Below are positions 743 through 11,431 of a stretch of DNA of 64,000 bases, one piece after another. How positions within the stretch are numbered: position 1 is the first letter of the stretch; each line of letters opens with the position of its first letter. The DNA comes from a virus. Taxonomy: Duplodnaviria > Caudoviricetes. Position numbers and translations under genes: made by a program. Where the stretch lies: IMG/VR virus record IMGVR_UViG_3300036762_000188. The stretch is one strand, 5' to 3'. Below the pieces are notes generated by a model that saw only the letters and a list, made by a program, of their open reading frames with translations, did not search any database and was not told where the DNA came from.

Positions 743-774
743 GGAGCAGGTACCCCCCCCCTGCTCCATTTTTT
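743..774 (+). terminator. Intrinsic terminator
   Basis: GGAGCAGG/CCTGCTCC stem followed by a T run. Confidence 0.6.
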
Positions 775-784
775 AGATTACGCA

Positions 785-796
785 GGTATAAATACA
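785..796 (+). promoter_or_regulatory. Class A (early-type) promoter motif, GGTATAAATA
   Basis: Variant of the recurring G(G/T)TATAAGTA motif, upstream of nrdA. Confidence 0.45.
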
Positions 797-864
797 ATGT
801 GGTATTGACATGGCTACCTCTGCGTATTAACATTGCAGGTAGTTTTTTACATTAGGAGAAGTTG

Positions 865-2670
865 ATGACTGAGTACTTAGGTATTAATATCGATTACAGT
901 AGAGATCGAATTATACCGGAACAGGGATTGTTAATGTTGACCACTAAGGGTTTCTATAAAACTGAGTGGGAGGGTTCTCCTCAAGAATCTTTTGCTAGAG
1001 CATCTACTTGCTACTGTTTCGGCGACTATGAATTAGCTAAGCGTATATATGACGCAGTGTCTAGTAAATGGTTTACATTCGCCAGTCCAGTGCTGAGCAC
1101 CGCTATTGAGATAGAGTGGCCGCGGGACTTGAGAGATTTCGAAGCTTATGGAGATTGGCTAGAGGATAACATAGACACTCCATCAGGCCTGCCTATAAGT
1201 TGTTTCTTAAATAGTATTGAGGACACTAAGGAGAGTCTAGTAGACACGCGTACGGAGGCTAACCTGCTGAGTATGAGTGGCGGCGGTATCGGTGTATACT
1301 TTGGTAACCGCTCCCCAGATGAGAAATCTACAGGTGTAATGGCGCACTTAGCTGGATGGGACGCCGACTGCCTATCATATAAACAGACCAGCTCACGCCG
1401 CGGTAGTATAGCAGCGTATTTAGATATCACTCACCCTGAAATCATTAAGTTCATACGTACCCGTAATCCTATCGGCGGTAAGAACTTTAACATAAATACA
1501 GGTGTTAACATTACCGATAAGTTTATGAAAGCCGTTATAAATGGCGATGACTATGAGCTTATCGATCCTAAGCATGGACCTACGGGGATATTCCTATCAG
1601 CACGAGAAGTGTGGGAAGATTTAATGGATCAGCGCTTTGAGACCGGCGAACCGTACCTATGTTTCATTGATACTATCAATCGTAGCCGTCCGCCACAGAT
1701 AACTAAGGCCCTGTATAATGTCCGCCAGAGTAACCTATGTTCAGAGATTACTCTTATGACGTCTAATAAGCGTACGGCTGTGTGCTGCCTATCGTCTCTA
1801 AACTTGGATAAGTACGATGAGTGGAAGGATACTACGCTAGTAGCAGACTTGGTAAGATTCTTAGATAACGTGCTAGAGTACTTCATTAGACTGGCCCCTC
1901 CGGGTTTAAGCAAGGCAGTATACTCCGCCCGTAAAGAGCGCGCTATAGGCCTCGGTACTTTAGGGTTCCATAGCTATCTACAGCGTAAAGGCGTACCATT
2001 CGAGTCCGGTGGTCTAGGAAGCGCTTCACAGATAAACTTTAACATATACCGTAATATCAAGGCCCAGGCAGTAGAGTCTAGTAAGGTACTGGCTAGTGAA
2101 CGAGGAGAGCCTGATGACTGTGTAGGAAGCGGCATGCGTAATAGTCATTTACTGGCTATAGCTCCTAACGCCAGCAGCTCATCCCTTGTCAACGTCAGTC
2201 CTTCTATCGAACCGTGGGCCGCTAACGCGTTCTCTGCCGAAGGTCGTGCCGGTGCATTCTTGATAAAGAACCCGCACTTAGTAACGGCTTTAGAGGAGTT
2301 AAATCTTAATACTGCGGATATGTGGGCTCGCATAGTTAAGGCAGAGGGTTCTATTCAGGGTATAGAGGAGATTCCCGAGAGCGTACGTAGAGTATTTAAG
2401 ACTAGCTTCGAGATAGACCAGATGTGGATCATAGAACACGCTGCTATCCGGGCTCCTGAAGTATGCCAGAGTCAGTCGGTGAATACCTTCTTGCTGCCCG
2501 GCAGTACTGCTCAGATGGCTAGTGATATCTGTATTGCCGCCTGGGCTAAAGGCGTCAAGTCTTTATATTACTGCCGTTCAGATGCACCGGTCAGCGCCAG
2601 TGTATCACGATCGGATACCGTACGGTCTAGTAAACCCTCCGAGCCAGCGTGCTTATCTTGTGAAGGATGA
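865..2670 (+). CDS. nrdA: Ribonucleoside-diphosphate reductase class Ia alpha subunit (short, no ATP cone)
   Basis: Motifs PISCFL, QSNLCSEI, VCCLSSLNL, RAIGLG, AIAPNASSS, KSLYYCR and C-terminal CLSCEG. Confidence 0.95.
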   Translation: MTEYLGINIDYSRDRIIPEQGLLMLTTKGFYKTEWEGSPQESFARASTCYCFGDYELAKRIYDAVSSKWFTFASPVLSTAIEIEWPRDLRDFEAYGDWLEDNIDTPSGLPISCFLNSIEDTKESLVDTRTEANLLSMSGGGIGVYFGNRSPDEKSTGVMAHLAGWDADCLSYKQTSSRRGSIAAYLDITHPEIIKFIRTRNPIGGKNFNINTGVNITDKFMKAVINGDDYELIDPKHGPTGIFLSAREVWEDLMDQRFETGEPYLCFIDTINRSRPPQITKALYNVRQSNLCSEITLMTSNKRTAVCCLSSLNLDKYDEWKDTTLVADLVRFLDNVLEYFIRLAPPGLSKAVYSARKERAIGLGTLGFHSYLQRKGVPFESGGLGSASQINFNIYRNIKAQAVESSKVLASERGEPDDCVGSGMRNSHLLAIAPNASSSSLVNVSPSIEPWAANAFSAEGRAGAFLIKNPHLVTALEELNLNTADMWARIVKAEGSIQGIEEIPESVRRVFKTSFEIDQMWIIEHAAIRAPEVCQSQSVNTFLLPGSTAQMASDICIAAWAKGVKSLYYCRSDAPVSASVSRSDTVRSSKPSEPACLSCEG

Positions 2671-2930
2671 ATGTAATGAATAGTAATGAAGCGATAATCC
2701 AGGCCCTTGATTCGGTACGTAGACTATACGCTAAGGAGATAGATGATATTGACAGTAAGATACGTACGGCTGCTGGTATGGGGAAGTTCTATGTGTCCAT
2801 AGATCTAACTGATTACCGTAGTGATATCACTCCTATGAAGGACGCCTTAGTTAACTTGTATAGATATAAATCTTTCACCGTGAAGTTACCTTTACCTGGT
2901 AGCGTGATTAACCTGGAGTGGCCTTTATGA
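2667..2930 (+). CDS. Hypothetical protein between nrdA and nrdB
   Basis: 87-aa ORF overlapping both neighbours (translational coupling). Confidence 0.65.
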   Translation: MNVMNSNEAIIQALDSVRRLYAKEIDDIDSKIRTAAGMGKFYVSIDLTDYRSDITPMKDALVNLYRYKSFTVKLPLPGSVINLEWPL

Positions 2931-3925
2931 TTATCTTTGAGCCTACACGTACGTACCACCCGTTTAAGGCGGCGTGGGCCATGGAGCTGGCAGAAGAACA
3001 CTCTATCAGTCTATACTGGGATAAGCATCAGCTTGAGTTTACGGATGACATCCGTCAGTATCACTCTAAGGATGGCCTTAAGACTGCTAACGTCAGCCAT
3101 GAGTCTAACAAGAACATGCTGGCTAAAAATCTTAGCGTATTCACCCAGAGTGATGTAGCGGTAGGAGAGTTGTACTGCCGACTGCTACCTTACGTTAAGA
3201 ACAATGAGATACGCAATTGGTTCATGGTGGCTGCTGCCCGTGAATCTACGCACCAGAGATGTTACGCTGCTGCGGTGGAGGAGTTAGGGTTCCCCGAGTC
3301 TACATGGGGTGAGTTCATGGAGTATAAAGCCATGAGCGATAAGATCGATCTTATTAGTGCTGCTAGTGAAGATCTATCTAAGCCTATAAACTTCGCTAAG
3401 ACTCTAGCACAACTTCTGTTGGCTGAGGGTATTGCCTTATTCGGAGCCTTCGCTAGTATGCTCAATCTTAAGCGCTTCGGGCTTATGATGGGTGTTAACA
3501 AGATTAACGAATGGTCACTTCGAGATGAAGAGCGTCACGTATACGGTAACATACTCGCGTTGAACGACGTCAAGTCTTACCTAACCGATGTAGAGTTGGT
3601 AGAGTTAAATGAGTTCATAGTAGAGGCAGTTACTCGTTATCGTGCAGCTGAGCATAAGTTCATCGAGCTAGCATACGAGATGGGTCCTCAGGAAGGTATG
3701 ACTGAGGGAGACATGAAGGACTACATAGATTACCTATGTGATTTACGATTAGAGCGTCTAGGGCTAGATCCTATCTACGGCACTAAAGATAACCCTTTAG
3801 AGTGGATGGATTGGTTACTAACAGGGCGTAAGCACGTTAACTTCTTTGAGAATCGTGTATCTCAGTATGATCACTTAGGATTGATAGGTGGTGTAGAATA
3901 CGATAAGTACGCATCTTATCTATAA
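2918..3925 (+). CDS. nrdB: Ribonucleoside-diphosphate reductase beta subunit (start may be ATG 2927)
   Basis: Di-metal ligands FTQSD, RESTH..Y, EGIALF, RDEERH and C-terminal NFFE. Confidence 0.95.
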   Translation: MAFMIIFEPTRTYHPFKAAWAMELAEEHSISLYWDKHQLEFTDDIRQYHSKDGLKTANVSHESNKNMLAKNLSVFTQSDVAVGELYCRLLPYVKNNEIRNWFMVAAARESTHQRCYAAAVEELGFPESTWGEFMEYKAMSDKIDLISAASEDLSKPINFAKTLAQLLLAEGIALFGAFASMLNLKRFGLMMGVNKINEWSLRDEERHVYGNILALNDVKSYLTDVELVELNEFIVEAVTRYRAAEHKFIELAYEMGPQEGMTEGDMKDYIDYLCDLRLERLGLDPIYGTKDNPLEWMDWLLTGRKHVNFFENRVSQYDHLGLIGGVEYDKYASYL

Positions 3926-3931
3926 GGGTAC

Positions 3932-3957
3932 CCCCTCTTACTTAAAAAGAGGGGTTT
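3932..3957 (+). terminator. Probable intrinsic terminator after nrdB
   Basis: CCCCTCTT/AAGAGGGG stem with a short T tail. Confidence 0.45.
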
Positions 3958-3958
3958 A

Positions 3959-3970
3959 GTTATAAACATA
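3959..3970 (+). promoter_or_regulatory. Class A promoter motif upstream of the ubiquitin-like operon
   Basis: GTTATAAACATA about 45 nt before ATG 4014. Confidence 0.5.
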
Positions 3971-4013
3971 TTGTAAGGGAACTTACGATCTCCAATATTT
4001 AAAGGAACATTAA

Positions 4014-5105
4014 ATGTCTAATACTATCGTTAATATCCCAGGCCGTGAATCACAAACTCTTACTGGTATGGTCCTGAGCGAGAAGGAAGTTCGCGACGCG
4101 TACGCAGGTGTGATCGACCTCGGTTCTTACGTAGCCACTACAACTAAATCTGGAGATGATACTATTATCACCTTCGCTAACCGTACTGGCACTAAAGGTG
4201 CTGATACTATCGTTAATATCCCTGGTCGTGAGTCTCAGACCCTTACTGGTATGGTCTTGAGCGAGAAAGACGTCCGTGACGCGTACGCAGGTGTAATTGA
4301 CCTAGGCTCTTACGTAGCTACAACTACTACTTCAGGCGGTAACACTGTTATTACCTTCGCTAACCGTACTGGCACTAAAGGTGCTGATACTATCGTTAAT
4401 ATCCCAGGCCGAGAATCCCAGACTCTTACGGGTATGGTCCTGAGTGAGAAAGACGTCCGCGATGCTTACGCAGGTGTGATTGACTTAGGCTCTTACGTAG
4501 CTACAACTACTACTTCAGGCGGTAACACTGTTATTACCTTCGCTAACCGTACTGGTACTAAGGGTGCCACTGCAGTGATTATTGATGGTGTCCAGGTCCT
4601 GTCTACTCCGGTAGATATGGATGAAGAGGATGTGCTGGATATCCTTGAGTCGGGCGCCTTTGGCGATGTCACTGACTACGAGTATACTACTCAGGAAGTA
4701 GGTAATACTACCTTCATGACTTTCACCCCAGTTATGGGTGAACTCGAGGCTCTTTTAAATAAGAACAAGCCTGTAGATTTGAAGGCCCTATTACTGCAAG
4801 GGCTAGTTGATAGTGACTCTTCAGACTTAGAGGAAGATGAGGGTGAAGACTATTATTGTTTTGATGAGTTTGATGAGTTTGATGAAGGCGAGGAGGACGA
4901 AGACGAGGTAACCTCTACCGAAGTTATCATCGACGGTATGACGCCTCGTGTTCTACAGGGCATCATAATGGATGCTAGTATGCTGATCGCAGCTTACCGT
5001 GACACTATTGACTTAAGCCAGTATGTAGCAGAAGAGCGTGTGCAGGGCAGTGTACTTAAGGTATATTTTACAAAACGCCAAGGTGCTAAAGGTGCCCTGG
5101 CGTAA
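4014..5105 (+). CDS. Polyubiquitin-like precursor: tandem prokaryotic Ubl (Prok_Ub / PRTRC protein C-like) domains
   Basis: Three 61-aa repeats ending RTGTKG (G62, G123, G184), a degenerate 4th unit, an acidic tract, and a 5th unit ending RQGAKG-ALA; VRDAYA and GTKG match PRTRC-C type Ubls; adjacent to E2, JAB and E1 genes. Confidence 0.8.
   Translation: MSNTIVNIPGRESQTLTGMVLSEKEVRDAYAGVIDLGSYVATTTKSGDDTIITFANRTGTKGADTIVNIPGRESQTLTGMVLSEKDVRDAYAGVIDLGSYVATTTTSGGNTVITFANRTGTKGADTIVNIPGRESQTLTGMVLSEKDVRDAYAGVIDLGSYVATTTTSGGNTVITFANRTGTKGATAVIIDGVQVLSTPVDMDEEDVLDILESGAFGDVTDYEYTTQEVGNTTFMTFTPVMGELEALLNKNKPVDLKALLLQGLVDSDSSDLEEDEGEDYYCFDEFDEFDEGEEDEDEVTSTEVIIDGMTPRVLQGIIMDASMLIAAYRDTIDLSQYVAEERVQGSVLKVYFTKRQGAKGALA
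4017..4565 (+). repeat. 3 x 183-bp tandem coding repeat
   Basis: Directly visible; the units differ mostly at synonymous positions. Confidence 0.95.
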
Positions 5106-5111
5106 TTAAAT

Positions 5112-5133
5112 AAGGGGCTTCGGCCCCTTTTTT
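5112..5133 (+). terminator. Intrinsic terminator inside the Ubl operon
   Basis: AAGGGGC-TTCG-GCCCCTT-TTTT. Confidence 0.8.
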
Positions 5134-5150
5134 ATTAAGGGTATTTTAAG

Positions 5151-5672
5151 ATGGATTTTAGATCTTCTTGCATGGCAAGAATACGCACTCTATTAGAAGA
5201 GTACGGTTCTACTAACGGATTACACCTACCAATCGGAGCTATAAATAGCACTTTAGGTTATATAGGGCCTTCAGGAGGCGTCTCTAATAATAATAATAGA
5301 TTAATTTACTTAATGGTGGGCGCCTTGACAGAACCTGCCAGTTATAACCACTGGCTTTTAAATGGCAGATCTATACCTATATATCTAGAGCATAACGCTA
5401 GTGTATGTATAGGCGTAGTGAGTGGGTATAGAGAACAGTTAATGGAGCAGCTCGAAAGGCTACATGGGGCTACTGTATCTATCGTACACATGAGTGATAC
5501 AGTGTCTACTGTAAGGATTAGATTTCAAGGAGGAACCCTTGAAGGCGTTATGGCTTCTTTAGTGCAGTTACGACAGATTATATCTGATATGGTTCTTAGT
5601 GGCAGGGCGTATGGATCTACTATACCTAACGTAAGTTATATGCTAGAGGAGGGTTCACATGGAACTTCTTGA
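5151..5672 (+). CDS. Hypothetical protein in the Ubl operon
   Basis: 173-aa ORF, co-oriented, overlaps the next gene. Confidence 0.7.
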   Translation: MDFRSSCMARIRTLLEEYGSTNGLHLPIGAINSTLGYIGPSGGVSNNNNRLIYLMVGALTEPASYNHWLLNGRSIPIYLEHNASVCIGVVSGYREQLMEQLERLHGATVSIVHMSDTVSTVRIRFQGGTLEGVMASLVQLRQIISDMVLSGRAYGSTIPNVSYMLEEGSHGTS

Positions 5673-5931
5673 GGCTATACTCGCCGTAGAGTCTAATGTA
5701 GCCGCGTCCCCTTTAGACGCAGCCGCAGAAGAGCTAATGACATTAGAAGCCAGGGTCCCTGATATCAGCTCTATAAGTGAGGTACTGCGCGTATTAGAGC
5801 GTGGCAATGACCTGCTTAACACTATCAATAGAGGTCCAGATCGTTACTGGCATAGCACATATAATAGTGTGTTCAACTTACAAAGGATATTATCCGTACC
5901 AACTTGTTCAGCAGGAGTGATTTATGTCTAG
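5659..5931 (+). CDS. Hypothetical protein in the Ubl operon
   Basis: 90-aa ORF with GAGGAG RBS, overlaps the E2 start. Confidence 0.7.
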   Translation: MELLEAILAVESNVAASPLDAAAEELMTLEARVPDISSISEVLRVLERGNDLLNTINRGPDRYWHSTYNSVFNLQRILSVPTCSAGVIYV

Positions 5932-6556
5932 TTTAATTATAAGCATGGACCGTAAGGATATCGTAACCGTAAAGGATGCTACAGGCAGCCACTTGAAAAC
6001 TATGTCGGTAACGTCATTTATAAACCTGCTTAAAGCCCTTAATCCAGAGGCCGTGGATTCCGTAGGGCGCCCTATATCCCTTCCTACCAGTATACTTACC
6101 ATAGCAGGTTCCCCTGCTCTATATAGTATATCTATGTACTTTCCCGAAAAAGAGGCTGTTGTACGGTGTAGCGGCACTAATTATAACATCGTACTCCCTA
6201 ATATAGTGCTAGAGATAGACCTGACCGAAGGTCCTGGATGCTGGACTATCACTAGAACTAGATGGATAATGACTGACAAGAGCCGGGTTGATTATAAACC
6301 TGAGTACGGTAAAGTTCTAGCTATGCCTAACGTGTATAGCGGCGGCAGTATGTGCTACGGCGGTAACGCACTACCCGGCAGGATCTACCATGATTGGACT
6401 ATACTAGATAGCCTGTATCATGATGTATTACTGAAATCTCCATTCAACAATGACCTAGGTGTACCTGGAGTTGGTGCAAGTGCCGACGACTGGTTAAAAA
6501 CCCTTAGCGATCGCCGACTTAACGGTGATAAATTCCCATATGAAAGATTCTTCTGA
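5924..6556 (+). CDS. Prokaryotic E2 ubiquitin-conjugating-like enzyme (Prok-E2 family D / PRTRC protein B-like)
   Basis: PNVYSGGSMCYG (Cys144) matches the E2 PNV..xG.iC catalytic motif; downstream SPFN. Confidence 0.8.
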   Translation: MSSLIISMDRKDIVTVKDATGSHLKTMSVTSFINLLKALNPEAVDSVGRPISLPTSILTIAGSPALYSISMYFPEKEAVVRCSGTNYNIVLPNIVLEIDLTEGPGCWTITRTRWIMTDKSRVDYKPEYGKVLAMPNVYSGGSMCYGGNALPGRIYHDWTILDSLYHDVLLKSPFNNDLGVPGVGASADDWLKTLSDRRLNGDKFPYERFF

Positions 6557-6563
6557 GGCTAAT

Positions 6564-7637
6564 ATGTCTATTATCATAAACCCTATTACTACCGTGTTAC
6601 TTAATCATACAGAAGTGGATGACCCTAAGTACAATCACTTCATGTTCAAATATGTGCTGGAGAAGGACCTGACGTTAACTAGTACGTCTGTCATGACCGG
6701 TGGACGGTTTATCAAGAAGTACATAGCCAACCTGGCCGGTAAGAAACTACCTGCCGACGAGATACAGCCACTAGTTAACGGGGTTAAGATCCCTATCCTC
6801 ATCATGCATCAGATCCATAAGTTCTTCATTGATGTTATGAAATTGCATTCTGGCAGTGAAGCGCAAGCTTTTGTGGTCATGAGAGACGGTGAGTACAAGA
6901 TATTAATCCCTGAGCAGACAGTAAGCGGGGCTGCTGTAACCTATGACCTGACTAAGGAATTATTACCGGGCGATATTATAGTTATGGATATACACTCCCA
7001 TAACTCTATGGCTGCGTTCTGGTCCGGTACAGATAACCGTGATGATAGTAAGAATACATGGATCTCTGGAGTATTCGGCAAGGTAAATACTAAGCTGGAG
7101 TATAAGTTCCGCTTCAGTGATGCTACAGGGTCTCATTATGATCTTGACATTAAGGACGTCTTTGAAGAGGCTGCCGAGGTATCGATACCTGCAGAGTGGG
7201 TATCTAATGTAAAAAAGTCGGTACTCTCACGAGCGCCTATAAGCAATTACCCCGGGTTATACCGAGGCCCTTCGAAGCCGAAGAAGTGGAAGCAGAGCCC
7301 GGGCTCTTTAGAATGGGTTGGTGGAACAGACTATTCAGAGGATGATCTATCCTTAGATACAATGATCACCTCTCTAGAAGATGCCTTAGTGGAGGACGAG
7401 TTGGTAGATATAATGACAGACATGATCGACCCGTATGCAGGGGATCGCCTAATGGTTAGTAAGGTACTGTCTAGTCTGGAAAACGCCTTCAGTGGTAACG
7501 GTAATATAGACGTATCGTTCCCTATAGGTGCCGAGAACCTATTCCATAAAACTCACACTGTATTATCAGGATATGGTACCGATAACAGTACCATACTGAC
7601 GTCACTAGCTACCGTAAAGGGTATGTACAATGTTTGA
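6564..7637 (+). CDS. JAB/MPN+ metallo-isopeptidase (PRTRC protein A-like) with C-terminal extension
   Basis: Upstream catalytic E (SEAQAF), PEQTVS, and DIHSHNSMAAFWSGTDNRDD = HxH-x7-S-x2-D JAMM motif; start at ATG 6564 after GAGG. Confidence 0.88.
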   Translation: MSIIINPITTVLLNHTEVDDPKYNHFMFKYVLEKDLTLTSTSVMTGGRFIKKYIANLAGKKLPADEIQPLVNGVKIPILIMHQIHKFFIDVMKLHSGSEAQAFVVMRDGEYKILIPEQTVSGAAVTYDLTKELLPGDIIVMDIHSHNSMAAFWSGTDNRDDSKNTWISGVFGKVNTKLEYKFRFSDATGSHYDLDIKDVFEEAAEVSIPAEWVSNVKKSVLSRAPISNYPGLYRGPSKPKKWKQSPGSLEWVGGTDYSEDDLSLDTMITSLEDALVEDELVDIMTDMIDPYAGDRLMVSKVLSSLENAFSGNGNIDVSFPIGAENLFHKTHTVLSGYGTDNSTILTSLATVKGMYNV

Positions 7638-8535
7638 GAGAAAATTTGAAAGCATAATATCTACAGTAGTAGTTATTGGATGCGGAGGTACTGGCTCTCG
7701 AGCCATACCTTTGATGGTGCAGATACTTAAGAATAGCCCTCGGGCGTTAGCGCCTCGCTTAGTACTTATCGATGATGACGTAGTGGAGCATAAGAACTTA
7801 GCACGTCAGAATTTTATCAACCAGGATGTTGGCAGAAGTAAGGCAGAGGTATTGGCCGAGAGGTATTCTGTTGCAATGGACTTCCCTATTGTATCCAATA
7901 AAGCTCGTATATCTGGTAACAATCTCGTAAATGTAGTAGATCAAGCTATGCATGGAAGAGGTTGGCCTTCTATCCGTGGTACACATAGTCCTATATTCAT
8001 ACTATGTGTAGATACCATGGAGGCTCGCATGGATATACTAAAACAGTTGCCGGGTGGATCTATTGTAATAGAGGCTGGTAACGAGGATACCTTCGGTAAC
8101 GTCACGGTGTTTGACGTAAGTGAATTCCGAGGTGCTAACGAAGCAACTCCATTCTATGGAACTGTGGAGATACCTGTAATACCAGCCCCGGTAGCACGAT
8201 ACGAACATGCATTAAAAAACCCGTCGGTTAAAACGGGTTCCTGTGCAGATTTAGATCAATCTGCTGCCATCAACAACTTGATGGCCGCAGGGATAAACAC
8301 TATACTCCAGAATATATCGTATGGTATACCTCTAAGATATCGTACTAAATTCTATGATCTGGCAGGTAGTGATCATACAGAGATAATGAACGTACACTGG
8401 TATAATCAGGAGTATAAGTGTGCTGGTATAAAAACTGCGATGCCAATGGCACATACGGCTAGGGCTGATGCTCTGAATCGAGACTTAGCAGCAGCCCGTA
8501 AGATACCTAAAGAACTACTTGCTGCTATAGCCTAG
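7630..8535 (+). CDS. E1/ThiF-family Ubl-activating enzyme (PRTRC ThiF-like)
   Basis: VIGCGGTGS, DDDVVEHKNLARQNF, GRSKAEVLA, LCVD..EAR and candidate catalytic GSCAD (Cys205). Confidence 0.9.
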   Translation: MFERKFESIISTVVVIGCGGTGSRAIPLMVQILKNSPRALAPRLVLIDDDVVEHKNLARQNFINQDVGRSKAEVLAERYSVAMDFPIVSNKARISGNNLVNVVDQAMHGRGWPSIRGTHSPIFILCVDTMEARMDILKQLPGGSIVIEAGNEDTFGNVTVFDVSEFRGANEATPFYGTVEIPVIPAPVARYEHALKNPSVKTGSCADLDQSAAINNLMAAGINTILQNISYGIPLRYRTKFYDLAGSDHTEIMNVHWYNQEYKCAGIKTAMPMAHTARADALNRDLAAARKIPKELLAAIA

Positions 8536-8798
8536 TAGTAAGTAGGCTTTTGCATAGCCTGCATTCCAAGTCCTGCTACCGACCCAGCTCCGTAACCCTT
8601 TAGTACTGTACTCCCTGCTACACGCAGGGCTGATACTAGTGCTTTAGGGTCTTTTTTAGCTATAGCAGCTAATAGGGCGGGGGCGGCTAAACCTGATGCA
8701 GAAGCAACTCCTATCGCACCACCTGTAAGAGCGGCAACTCCGTAGTCAGGGTCGAACGCCTTCTTCTCTAGCATTCTAGCTTTTTCCAGTAAAGACAT
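8532..8798 (-). CDS. Small Gly/Ala-rich hydrophobic late protein
   Basis: 88 aa; N-terminal KARMLEKKA followed by glycine-zipper-like segments. Confidence 0.6.
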   Translation of the reverse strand: MSLLEKARMLEKKAFDPDYGVAALTGGAIGVASASGLAAPALLAAIAKKDPKALVSALRVAGSTVLKGYGAGSVAGLGMQAMQKPTYY

Positions 8799-9225
8799 TT
8801 TTCTTCTCCATTAATATAGTTAACATCCTGCGGAATCCGAATACCGCCACGAAAATACCTATGATTATCCAGGTATACCAATCCGGTACTCCGGTCTTTA
8901 GAAATTCGAAGCCGGCCTTGACATTATCTTGAGTCTGAGGGAAAAATGAAGCTACGAATGGCGCTAGGAAAACTAGCATAACGAATTCATCCTTCCAGGA
9001 ATTCTCCTGACTCTTAACTGCTAGCATATCTAGATCATTCTGGGCGTCTGCGTCTCTCTGCATACGCACGATAGAGGCATTGGCCTCTGCCTCTATAAGT
9101 CTTATTCTAGCATCTACTTCAGCAGCTTTAATGTTAAGCTTCTGCTCCTCAGTCATAGTCTTACGATCCTGCCATTTACCCACCAGTTCAGTAACCGGTG
9201 ATATAAGAGCTGACCATATACTCAT
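8776..9225 (-). CDS. Putative holin (3TM-holin-like)
   Basis: Coiled N-terminus, SWKDEF motif, two hydrophobic segments, PDWY...FGFR. Confidence 0.65.
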   Translation of the reverse strand: MSIWSALISPVTELVGKWQDRKTMTEEQKLNIKAAEVDARIRLIEAEANASIVRMQRDADAQNDLDMLAVKSQENSWKDEFVMLVFLAPFVASFFPQTQDNVKAGFEFLKTGVPDWYTWIIIGIFVAVFGFRRMLTILMEKKNVFTGKS

Positions 9226-10697: not shown

Positions 10698-11431
10698 TAT
10701 TTCCCGTATCCTTCTATGTAATTCATTAGTTTCTCAGCTTCCGTCATACTATGCTCGTAGCCGTCAGTATCGCCGCTTTCACCCATAGCCTTAGCTTTAG
10801 CCACCAGGTCGTGTACATGCGGTTTGTAGTACTCGTTAACCTCTCTTTTAGTAGGGGCTAAATCTACTCCACTCATTAATATATTTTTAGAGTTAGTTTT
10901 TAAAGTATCAGATACTATACTAGGCTTAGGAACGTGTCCAGTAAGCATGAATAGGTTAAGATCATCCTCACCCTTTATATTACGCAGCGATCCTACTACA
11001 TCAGCCTGATTCCTGTTACGCGCCCTATCAGTTAGTACCTCTGCTATAGTCCCACCGAGCGTAGCTACACCACCTAACGCTAGGGTAGACGGCAGTGCTT
11101 TCTTTATAGTAGAGTACAGTAACCCAGACTGTCCAGGCACTGTAGGCGCCCCGCGGGTCATCCACAGACTACCGATAAGAGAGCCTAATACTGGTACGGA
11201 TGCTAAGCTAGCGGTATTCGACAGAGATCTCCCTACCATACCGGGTAGTTTAGCTATTATACTCCTACCCTCTTGCACATCCAAGCCTTCTGCGGCTACT
11301 ATTCTCACCACCTCTTTCTGATCCGCCGTAGTCATGGCTTTGAAGAAAGGGCTGTTAAATGATTGATCTATAGGCTTAGAGCCGTTACGATGCGCTAGCA
11401 CCATAGCTCTTGCCATGCTTTTAGTGTCCAT
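10697..11431 (-). CDS. Putative virion protein with two hydrophobic Gly-rich segments
   Basis: 244 aa; preceded by the TAAAATA late motif and an AGGA RBS. Confidence 0.55.
   Translation of the reverse strand: MDTKSMARAMVLAHRNGSKPIDQSFNSPFFKAMTTADQKEVVRIVAAEGLDVQEGRSIIAKLPGMVGRSLSNTASLASVPVLGSLIGSLWMTRGAPTVPGQSGLLYSTIKKALPSTLALGGVATLGGTIAEVLTDRARNRNQADVVGSLRNIKGEDDLNLFMLTGHVPKPSIVSDTLKTNSKNILMSGVDLAPTKREVNEYYKPHVHDLVAKAKAMGESGDTDGYEHSMTEAEKLMNYIEGYGK

Follow-up and report, generated by a model that had tools for sequence, protein, structure and literature searches.

Positions 4014-5105 of the stretch of phage DNA analysed here (the window; 64,000 nucleotides, IMG/VR record IMGVR_UViG_3300036762_000188, Caudoviricetes) encode on the + strand a 363-residue protein, P0001, that is composed of tandem ubiquitin-like (Ubl) units with reactive glycine tails and closes in a short cap. 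Judged by this organization of its sequence, P0001 would fall into the functional class of polyubiquitin-type precursors, with a fourth unit that is tail-less, and there is in our estimate a reasonably good chance that it supplies a ubiquitin-like conjugation cassette of the phage's own. Polyubiquitin genes are regarded as a eukaryotic means of making much modifier fast.

The open reading frame (ORF) of P0001 is preceded by an AGGA ribosome-binding site 8 nt 5' of the ATG, and analysis with Tandem Repeats Finder revealed a repeat of period 183 within it (3.0 copies, 88% matches, score 842). This repeat comprises unit 1 (residues 2-62; 4017-4199), unit 2 (residues 63-123; 4200-4382) and unit 3 (residues 124-184; 4383-4565), all on the + strand like the features that follow; the three abut head to tail, in register and without a spacer, and each scored ~90 bits (E ~1e-30; 90.8 bits for unit 1) on a unit profile that was built without P0001's own rows. 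Units 1 and 2 end in RTGTKG at residues 62 and 123, respectively, each followed by Ala, and unit 3 is identical to unit 2 as a protein. Unit 4 (residues ~185-244; 4566-4745) ends in PVMG without a reactive tail and aligned to the profile solely over the last hairpin (residues 218-238; 3.9-5.7 bits); the start T-x-V-I-I-D-G that it has in common with unit 5 suggests that it arose by decay from the last-unit type. Short helices and an acidic tract occupy residues 245-300 (4746-4913; 23 Asp plus Glu, 3 Lys plus Arg; predicted to be disordered) and include a micro-repeat, (FDE)x3, at 4860-4885 (TTTGATGAG, 2.9 copies of period 9 by Tandem Repeats Finder). Unit 5 (residues 301-360; 4914-5093; 45.6 bits, E 3e-16), a diverged unit of the last-position or 'C-type', ends in GAKG360 and departs from the family motif by IDGMTPR in place of IPGRE and QGAKG in place of TGTKG; translation places the C-terminal cap Ala-Leu-Ala and the stop codon directly after it (5094-5105).

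Much of this layout had been described in an earlier note on this DNA. Translation of 4014-5105 confirmed the four tail glycines that it named (G62, G123, G184 and G360), and translation together with the repeat analysis bore out its three units of 61 residues, each with RTGTKG and then Ala; likewise, the acidic tract with (FDE)x3 proved real, and unit 5 is a true though diverged unit whose KG360 leads into ALA and the stop. The loss of the GTKG end that the note saw in unit 4 is correct, whereas its wording that the unit 'keeps the pattern' was generous in view of the profile score, the poor model described below and the alignment of the last hairpin. Its observation that every KG is followed by Ala holds at all four KG of P0001; across the family this is a preference (28 of 70) and no rule.

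Selection on the copies was evaluated at the DNA level, where any two repeat copies have 16-30 differences over 183 bases. Between units 2 and 3 there are 16 synonymous and 0 non-synonymous changes (non-synonymous divergence dN 0, synonymous divergence dS 0.44), and units 1 and 2 gave a dN of 0.057 and a dS of 0.70. Sixteen substitutions placed at random were never all synonymous in 200,000 simulations, and when the 16 changes were confined to third positions all were synonymous in 1.2% of trials. This synonymous-only drift indicates that the copies are old enough to have drifted, each under purifying selection. Furthermore, since the copies differ at the DNA level and the exact protein was recorded from 4 contigs, an assembly artefact is unlikely.

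A megablast search of positions 3900-8600 against 50,697 phage records returned no match, and relatives appeared at the protein level. A word-based search found 16 relatives of 231-368 residues; comparison of the unit profile with 1.84 billion cluster representatives yielded 53 proteins, leaving out of the family those proteins of 450-1500 residues that matched just parts of the profile, and a scan of IMG/VR returned one related locus. Counted by tails, 16 of the 53 proteins carry one unit, 12 carry two, 20 three, 2 four and 3 five, and the comparison of repeat number for which the earlier note had called thus gave one to five units, varying among close relatives. Units of the close family are exactly 60 residues long and run from xTxIxIPGRE to NRTGTKG; over 23 aligned units F52, R55, G57, K59 and G60 are invariant, and the units are otherwise ~50% identical. 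Arrays of identical units free of spacers were found in P0039 (five units), P0063 (four) and P0029, P0032, P0035 and P0062 (two each), and the spacer-free head-to-tail layout in register also in P0026. The 16 single-unit representatives measure 62-68 residues. In Salmonella phage Arash a 66-residue single-unit ORF that ends in RTGTKG and a stop heads the same cassette (profile E 5e-13). It occupies L003:107-307 near the end of the record (OQ632216.1) and appears to be the true gene at this place, where GenBank annotates another frame as gp251c (102-320) with a translation that looks meaningless; the Arash annotation misses the Ubl.

The glycine tail (xG[TN]KG) is kept in ~70 of the 72 internal units of the 53 representatives, and internal cutting is the sole reading that we can offer for its retention in nearly all of them. 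It is missing from two internal units, unit 4 of P0001 and one in P0008, each positioned just before the last unit. At the C-terminus, 28 of the 53 proteins end exactly at KG, the remainder being capped by 1-5 residues of varied sequence (A, EA, DA, E, N, K, C, I, ND, ILA, ALA, ALLAA and INYSK); after an internal KG (n = 70) stands Ala in 28 cases, Asn in 14, Gln in 12, Ser in 9, Thr in 5, and His and Trp in 1 each, with no Pro. The existence of single-unit orthologues and of proteins ending at KG argues for a mature form consisting of one unit with a free Gly; capped proteins require a peptidase that cuts the peptide bond after KG, for which the JAMM peptidase of the cassette is the obvious candidate. 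Moreover, in P0032, P0035 and P0062 the residues that follow Met1 are the same as those that follow the internal KG, so that a cut after KG combined with removal of Met would give identical products. For units 1-3 of P0001, the shared fold, the RTGTKG tail and the small residue next to it make internal cuts probable, and we judge cleavage within the precursor to be somewhat more probable than its absence.

To describe the fold, a single unit was modelled with AlphaFold2 from the alignment of 23 units; the model reached a predicted local distance difference test (pLDDT) score of 88.7, with the order strand-strand-helix-strand-strand; confidence was lower in the flexible tail (residues 55-60). 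In an all-against-all structure search with VIA-align it matched mostly MoaD, ThiS, Urm1, ubiquitin, SUMO, ISG15, FAT10, Fubi and GB1 (Z 3.3-5.3). Links at the level of profiles lead in the same direction: P0006 scored 24.6 bits on Pfam Prok_Ub (cut-off 25), and P0039 (E 1e-9) and P0063 (E 1e-4), both retrieved with the unit profile, scored 77.7 and 71.5 bits, over five and four stretches, on PRTRC_C (TIGR03738, cut-off 45.95), the Ubl model of the PRTRC cassette (NCBIfam TIGR03734-03742, with PRTRC_C as Ubl, PRTRC_B/Pfam Prok-E2_D, PRTRC_A as JAB, and PRTRC_ThiF). The E2-like genes beside P0039 and P0063 have precomputed Prok-E2_D matches of stronger grade. Searches of P0001 against Pfam, PHROGs and NCBIfam gave chance-level matches alone (for example, GroES and YhcN), and neither the unit profile nor the E2-like profile found anything meaningful among PDB sequences. 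Taken together, the modelling supports the view of the P0001 unit as a small beta-grasp, ubiquitin-like module with a floppy Gly tail. The full-length model (predicted template modelling score, pTM, 0.26) showed no packing between domains, with units 1-3 and 5 confident (pLDDT ~90 for unit 1) and disordered stretches at residues 181-202 and 241-289; in this model the units are arranged as beads on a string. The earlier note had proposed that units 4 and 5 be modelled, and of these unit 5 was predicted with confidence (pLDDT 92-95) and unit 4 came out half-formed (56-64).

The precursor gene is bounded by two terminator-like hairpins on the + strand, one with a T-rich tail between the gene for the small subunit of ribonucleotide reductase (RNR) and the poly-Ubl gene (3932-3964), the other with stem AAGGGGC, loop TTCG and a T-run directly after the poly-Ubl stop (5112-5136); at 11 of 11 related loci the (poly)Ubl stop codon leads directly into a GC-rich hairpin with a T-run. 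Downstream on the + strand lie the genes for an E2-like protein (5924-6556), a JAB/JAMM peptidase (6564-7637) and a ThiF-type E1 (7630-8535). The E2-like protein (210 residues) carries an invariant Pro135-Asn136-x7-Cys144 motif in which Pro135-Asn136 sits eight residues before the Cys, the spacing of the HPN...Cys motif of canonical E2s. Its own match to Prok-E2_D had an E of 0.12, and 5 of 5 orthologues matched the model (best E 3.8e-4), all below the 25-bit cut-off; on NCBIfam it gave no match at E <= 1. The peptidase (Prok-JAB, E 1.2e-5) has the residues E112 and H157-x-H159-x7-S167-x2-D170 (ORF numbering), a full JAMM signature that is invariant among the orthologues, and its best NCBIfam match was PRTRC_A (E 4e-16; 59.1 bits against a cut-off of 101.8). 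The E1 (301 residues; ThiF, E 2e-13) has a GxGGxG loop, RQN, D128 and an invariant Cys205, with PRTRC_ThiF as its best NCBIfam match (E 2.7e-18; 66.2 bits against a cut-off of 144.75). By their motifs, the JAMM, E2-like and E1 enzymes all look intact. The order (poly)Ubl, ORF X, ORF Y, E2-like, JAB and E1 recurred in every locus with enough DNA (L001-L006 and L010-L016, among them Vibrio phages D69 and D181, a 172 kb IMG/VR contig, a 169 kb ENA contig, shorter contigs and Arash), and two distant loci have the same gene order with larger middle genes.

Next, the relationship among individual units was examined. In a maximum-likelihood tree of 74 close-family units, 18 last units formed one clade (support 91/93), and 16 of these 18 are preceded by a tract with at least 8 Asp plus Glu, usually after an amphipathic helix of the type Q-T-N-L-L-S-A-I-F-A-A-V. 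First units cluster too, accounting for 16 of the 18 units of another clade (support 98/98). Unit 5 of P0001 falls in the last-unit clade, on a long branch. The association of the last-unit clade with the acidic tract across relatives indicates that an acidic second modifier is a family trait, that is, an old module and no quirk of one phage; the proposal in the earlier note that the precursor gives two kinds of modifier is in this way supported in outline. The sequences further suggest that in P0001 the ancestral first and second units were replaced by three copies of one unit type and that the tail of the last unit drifted to QGAKG. The idea that each spacer travels with the unit after it, raised by the acidic tract before unit 2 of P0009, was dropped, as the tree puts that unit outside the last-unit clade. 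The function suggested for the tract in the note, a nucleic-acid mimic or a solubilising tag, is pure speculation.

In the scheme that we propose, the poly-Ubl gene, lying between two terminator-like hairpins, should be transcribed in excess over the enzyme genes, and its five units would multiply the yield per message; such an arrangement of hairpins fits a modifier that is produced at a higher level than its enzymes. The JAMM peptidase would remove the Ala-Leu-Ala cap after G360 and probably also cut after G62, G123 and G184, giving three Ubls of 61 residues (~6.3-6.4 kDa) together with a product of 176 residues (residues 185-360; ~19.5 kDa, pI ~4). This larger product would combine the decayed beta-grasp, the helix, the acidic tract and unit 5 into a two-domain modifier of the ISG15/FAT10 kind. 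The ThiF-type E1 (Cys205) would adenylate the freed Gly, Cys144 of the E2-like protein would receive it next, and lysines of target proteins would be its final acceptors. We infer every one of these biochemical steps, above all the internal cleavage and the separate role of the acidic product. The strongest form of the proposal, in which the phage carries a functionally true polyubiquitin gene that evolved independently of eukaryotes, with identical small modifiers cut out by JAMM and an acidic-extended modifier, both attached by E1 and E2 to different host or phage targets, is a tentative possibility, with the odds somewhat against it.

Several observations weigh against the scheme. With the unit model as query, Foldseek returned no significant PDB match (best E 0.39), with protein L B1 and a few Ubl domains as non-significant top rows, and the VIA-align Z-scores are low in absolute terms, so that the beta-grasp call rests on the model, the match list and the profile links combined. 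P0001 itself gave no match to Prok_Ub or PRTRC_C at E <= 1, and the homology of its units to these families is, on present sequences, transitive. Most relatives have spacers of 12-60 residues between units, and these show conserved patterns (ahead of unit 2, a stretch of the (G-D-hydrophobic) type; ahead of the acidic tract, the amphipathic helix). Of the 19 units preceded by an acidic tract, three lie outside the last-unit clade, and the changed tail QGAKG and lost IPGRE of unit 5 make its competence less certain than that of units 1-3. The peptidase is kept in the single-unit, uncapped Arash, and its presence alone is therefore no proof of precursor processing; since Arash needs no trimming, the JAB may serve in deconjugation alone. 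Finally, our literature search found no cleavage, thioester or conjugate reported for any family member.

The spacers lead directly to the alternative that we take most seriously, although we consider it unlikely: the Ala-Leu-Ala cap alone is removed, and the whole chain of 360 residues is activated at G360 and attached as one piece, acting like ISG15, FAT10, bacterial Ubl3 or a ready-made linear chain. Spacers with conserved patterns could mean a folded multi-domain protein, a free C-terminus is certain for the last unit alone, and from the decayed unit 4 it is evident that the protein can permanently carry at least one unit as an N-terminal appendage; Ubl3 itself, with three beta-grasp domains, acts as one unit and forms filaments (PMC11601603). 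A permanently joined chain does not sit easily, however, with a reactive tail that stays invariant in nearly all internal units while the rest has diverged to ~50% identity, nor with units 1-3, which are near-identical and abut without a spacer where the domains of uncut proteins normally specialise. Single-unit orthologues that end at KG, the range of one to five units among close relatives and the unpacked full-length model likewise count in favour of cleavage.

Two further explanations dispense with protein conjugation or with the enzymes altogether. The units could be sulfur carriers, thiocarboxylated by the E1 in the manner of ThiS, MoaD, TtuB and Urm1 for the modification of a cofactor, tRNA or DNA, the Cys protein then being a persulfide relay and no E2; MoaD and ThiS are among the top structure matches, the E1 also matches ThiF and MoeB models, and the cassette adjoins genes of nucleotide metabolism (the RNR large and small subunits). 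We regard this as improbable, as the E1 and the JAB match best to PRTRC_ThiF and PRTRC_A, ahead of ThiF or MoeB, and the Cys protein matches Prok-E2_D in all five orthologues with the E2-like PN-x7-C spacing; a search of the complete 148.9-kb genome found no rhodanese, the cassette has neither a ThiG nor a MoaE partner, and the tail ends in KG where ThiS and MoaD have GG. We know of no counterpart among sulfur carriers to a capped precursor of several units. Alternatively, unconjugated Ubl units and the acidic tract might act as a decoy that soaks up or blocks host Ubl-based defence enzymes (Bil, or Cap2/Cap3 of CBASS, a system of anti-phage signalling by cyclic oligonucleotides) or that mimics nucleic acid. 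Many identical copies in excess would suit a stoichiometric inhibitor, and aromatic-rich acidic tracts recall DNA-mimic anti-restriction proteins; nevertheless, the gene is always linked to E1, E2-like and JAB genes of its own, PADLOC gave no match to Bil or CBASS Ubl models and generic matches for the E1 alone, and single-unit forms without an acidic tract are common, which leaves this explanation very improbable, marginally more so than sulfur transfer. A polyubiquitin-type precursor for a phage-borne conjugation cassette thus remains the interpretation that we prefer.

Two further genes of the cassette lie between the second hairpin and the E2-like gene on the + strand. ORF X (5151-5672; 173 residues) evolves fast and is conserved in position, as is ORF Y (5659-5931; 90 residues), which overlaps both of its neighbours. 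ORFs X and Y are 12-25% identical among orthologues (12-20% for ORF X), and neither matched a family in Pfam, PHROGs, NCBIfam or PADLOC; an ESM Atlas search with ORF X gave sub-threshold KH-like leads alone (scores <=0.82). ORF Y, of ~90-99 residues in the orthologues, keeps a C-terminal (I/D)YV and a few scattered positions. Such rapid divergence would be compatible with a role as specificity factor or as target.

Comparison of the loci also yielded a number of separate observations. The source genome is a complete virus record of 148,929 bp with direct terminal repeats; positions 753-64000 of the window equal positions 1-63248 of this record, and the first 752 bases lie off the record start. 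The open frame of the JAB begins at GTG 6525, overlapping the end of the E2-like gene. The likelier start is ATG 6564 (Met14, MSIIINPITT), from which every orthologue aligns. Directly downstream of the cassette, on the - strand at 8532-9225, are small Gly/Ala-rich, hydrophobic ORFs (88 and 149 residues) that look membrane-associated. The cassette lies between RNR genes and this oppositely oriented block in L001, L002, L004, L005, L006, L010 and L011; in L011 the RNR large subunit just upstream of it (762-4010, 1082 residues) has intein and LAGLIDADG matches, which marks it as an RNR that contains an intein. Between JAB and E1, L004 has an ORF of 181 residues (10842-11387), and L005 the same insertion (179 residues); by eye the L004 ORF contains an HNH-type motif (DHINRD...N) and an AP2-like domain and looks like a homing endonuclease. 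The spacer-free, four-unit P0063 is encoded in L016, a 216 kb contig of a bacterial assembly (GCA_002140695.1, NGLF01000003.1), next to Prok-E2_D, JAB and ThiF genes and near ParA-like and NADAR genes; this contig may be a large plasmid, a phage-plasmid or a prophage. In Arash the E1 and the E2-like protein are labelled 'structural protein'; we rejected virion packaging as the meaning of these labels, given that the underlying mass-spectrometry list of 116 proteins includes RNR and RNA polymerase and hence shows expression at most. The gp numbering of the Arash paper maps uncleanly onto GenBank.

If the interpretation is true, the phage array of one to five units, nearly every one with its own reactive tail, would be the first precursor strategy on the prokaryote side, and a full Ubl system would stand on the virus side of the phage-host conflict, in which bacterial Ubl conjugation has so far been studied as anti-phage defence. 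We found no paper on such a phage cassette or on a cleaved prokaryotic poly-Ubl in the literature searched, which did not cover all journals. The 6d/PRTRC-type cassette has been known from comparative genomics alone since 2006, and the family is now testable, as relatives are available in culture (Vibrio phages D69, D148 and D181, and Salmonella phage Arash). Because the tail ends in Lys-Gly, trypsin would leave a mono-Gly remnant on target lysines; this remnant has the nominal mass of an iodoacetamide artefact, so that standard di-Gly workflows would miss the conjugates.

Among known systems, the parts list of the phage cassette is matched by operon type 6d of Iyer, Burroughs and Aravind 2006 (PMC1779556). 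The core parts are common to it and to type 6d and PRTRC: a beta-grasp protein of small size whose C-terminal Gly is conserved, a Cys protein resembling E2, an N-terminally extended JAB, a stand-alone ThiF-type E1 and extra uncharacterised proteins. A single small Ubl was described for type 6d, whereas the phage family has an array of one to five units, and PRTRC, which is itself without a known function, resides on a plasmid or an integrative and conjugative element, whereas the phage cassette is found on a large phage of the lytic type. When the complete phage genome (148,929 bp) was searched for the PRTRC ParB (TIGR03734), nothing matched at E <= 0.01, which argues that the cassette is a distant phage branch and no member of PRTRC.

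Bub (type 6E) operons resemble the phage locus in having several beta-grasp domains per protein beside proteins of the E1, E2 and JAB types, and their tandem arrangement of two to three Ubl domains was termed 'reminiscent of poly-ubiquitin' in 2006 (Iyer et al.). The bacterial proteins once likened to polyubiquitin turned out to be uncut modifiers of three domains, and bacterial Ubl3 is a compact, uncut homodimer that forms Ca-dependent filaments (PMC11601603), a precedent that counts on the side of an uncut P0001. In contrast to Ubl3, nearly every phage unit keeps a tail of its own and the P0001 model lacks packing; in contrast to Bub, which has JAB-E1 or E2-E1 fusions and a DUF6527 protease, the phage genes are separate, and the family scan of window proteins found no DUF6527. 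The putative product of residues 185-360 would resemble ISG15 and FAT10 in joining a non-reactive N-terminal beta-grasp remnant to a reactive C-terminal unit; it differs from them in its decayed N-terminal domain, in a linker that is a 56-residue helix and acidic tract, and in having no sequence relationship to either.

The Bil system (BilA Ubl, BilB E2, BilC JAB and BilD E1) unites the same four activities in one operon. It is a host defence against phages, whereas the cassette described here is phage-borne, and BilA has one to three domains and is undescribed as a cleaved array. PADLOC, with BilA, BilB and BilC included, gave no match for the Ubl, E2-like and JAB proteins; the E1 alone had matches, mostly to CBASS E1-E2 models (BilD, E 0.035). 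BilC, a related JAB peptidase, trims BilA at a Gly-Ala bond and cuts a linear Ubl-GFP fusion between Gly97 and Ala98 (10.1101/2023.09.26.559546), and by analogy this activity is the best mechanistic precedent for cutting between KG and Ala in P0001.

Eukaryotic polyubiquitin of the UBB, UBC and yeast UBI4 type differs from P0001 in several respects. The two have a fold class alone in common, with no sequence similarity of P0001 to ubiquitin; the phage unit has ~60 residues and four strands, and its tail reads xTGTKG as opposed to LRLRGG. The presumed phage processing enzyme is a JAMM metallopeptidase, the cleavage itself being deduced, and the P0001 array further contains the decayed unit 4, the acidic tract and a last unit of its own type. 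In their architecture, the two are nonetheless alike: both line up units head to tail without spacers, each with its reactive Gly tail, both have copies that are identical as proteins and have diverged synonymously, both end in a removable C-terminal cap, and in both the number of units varies among relatives.

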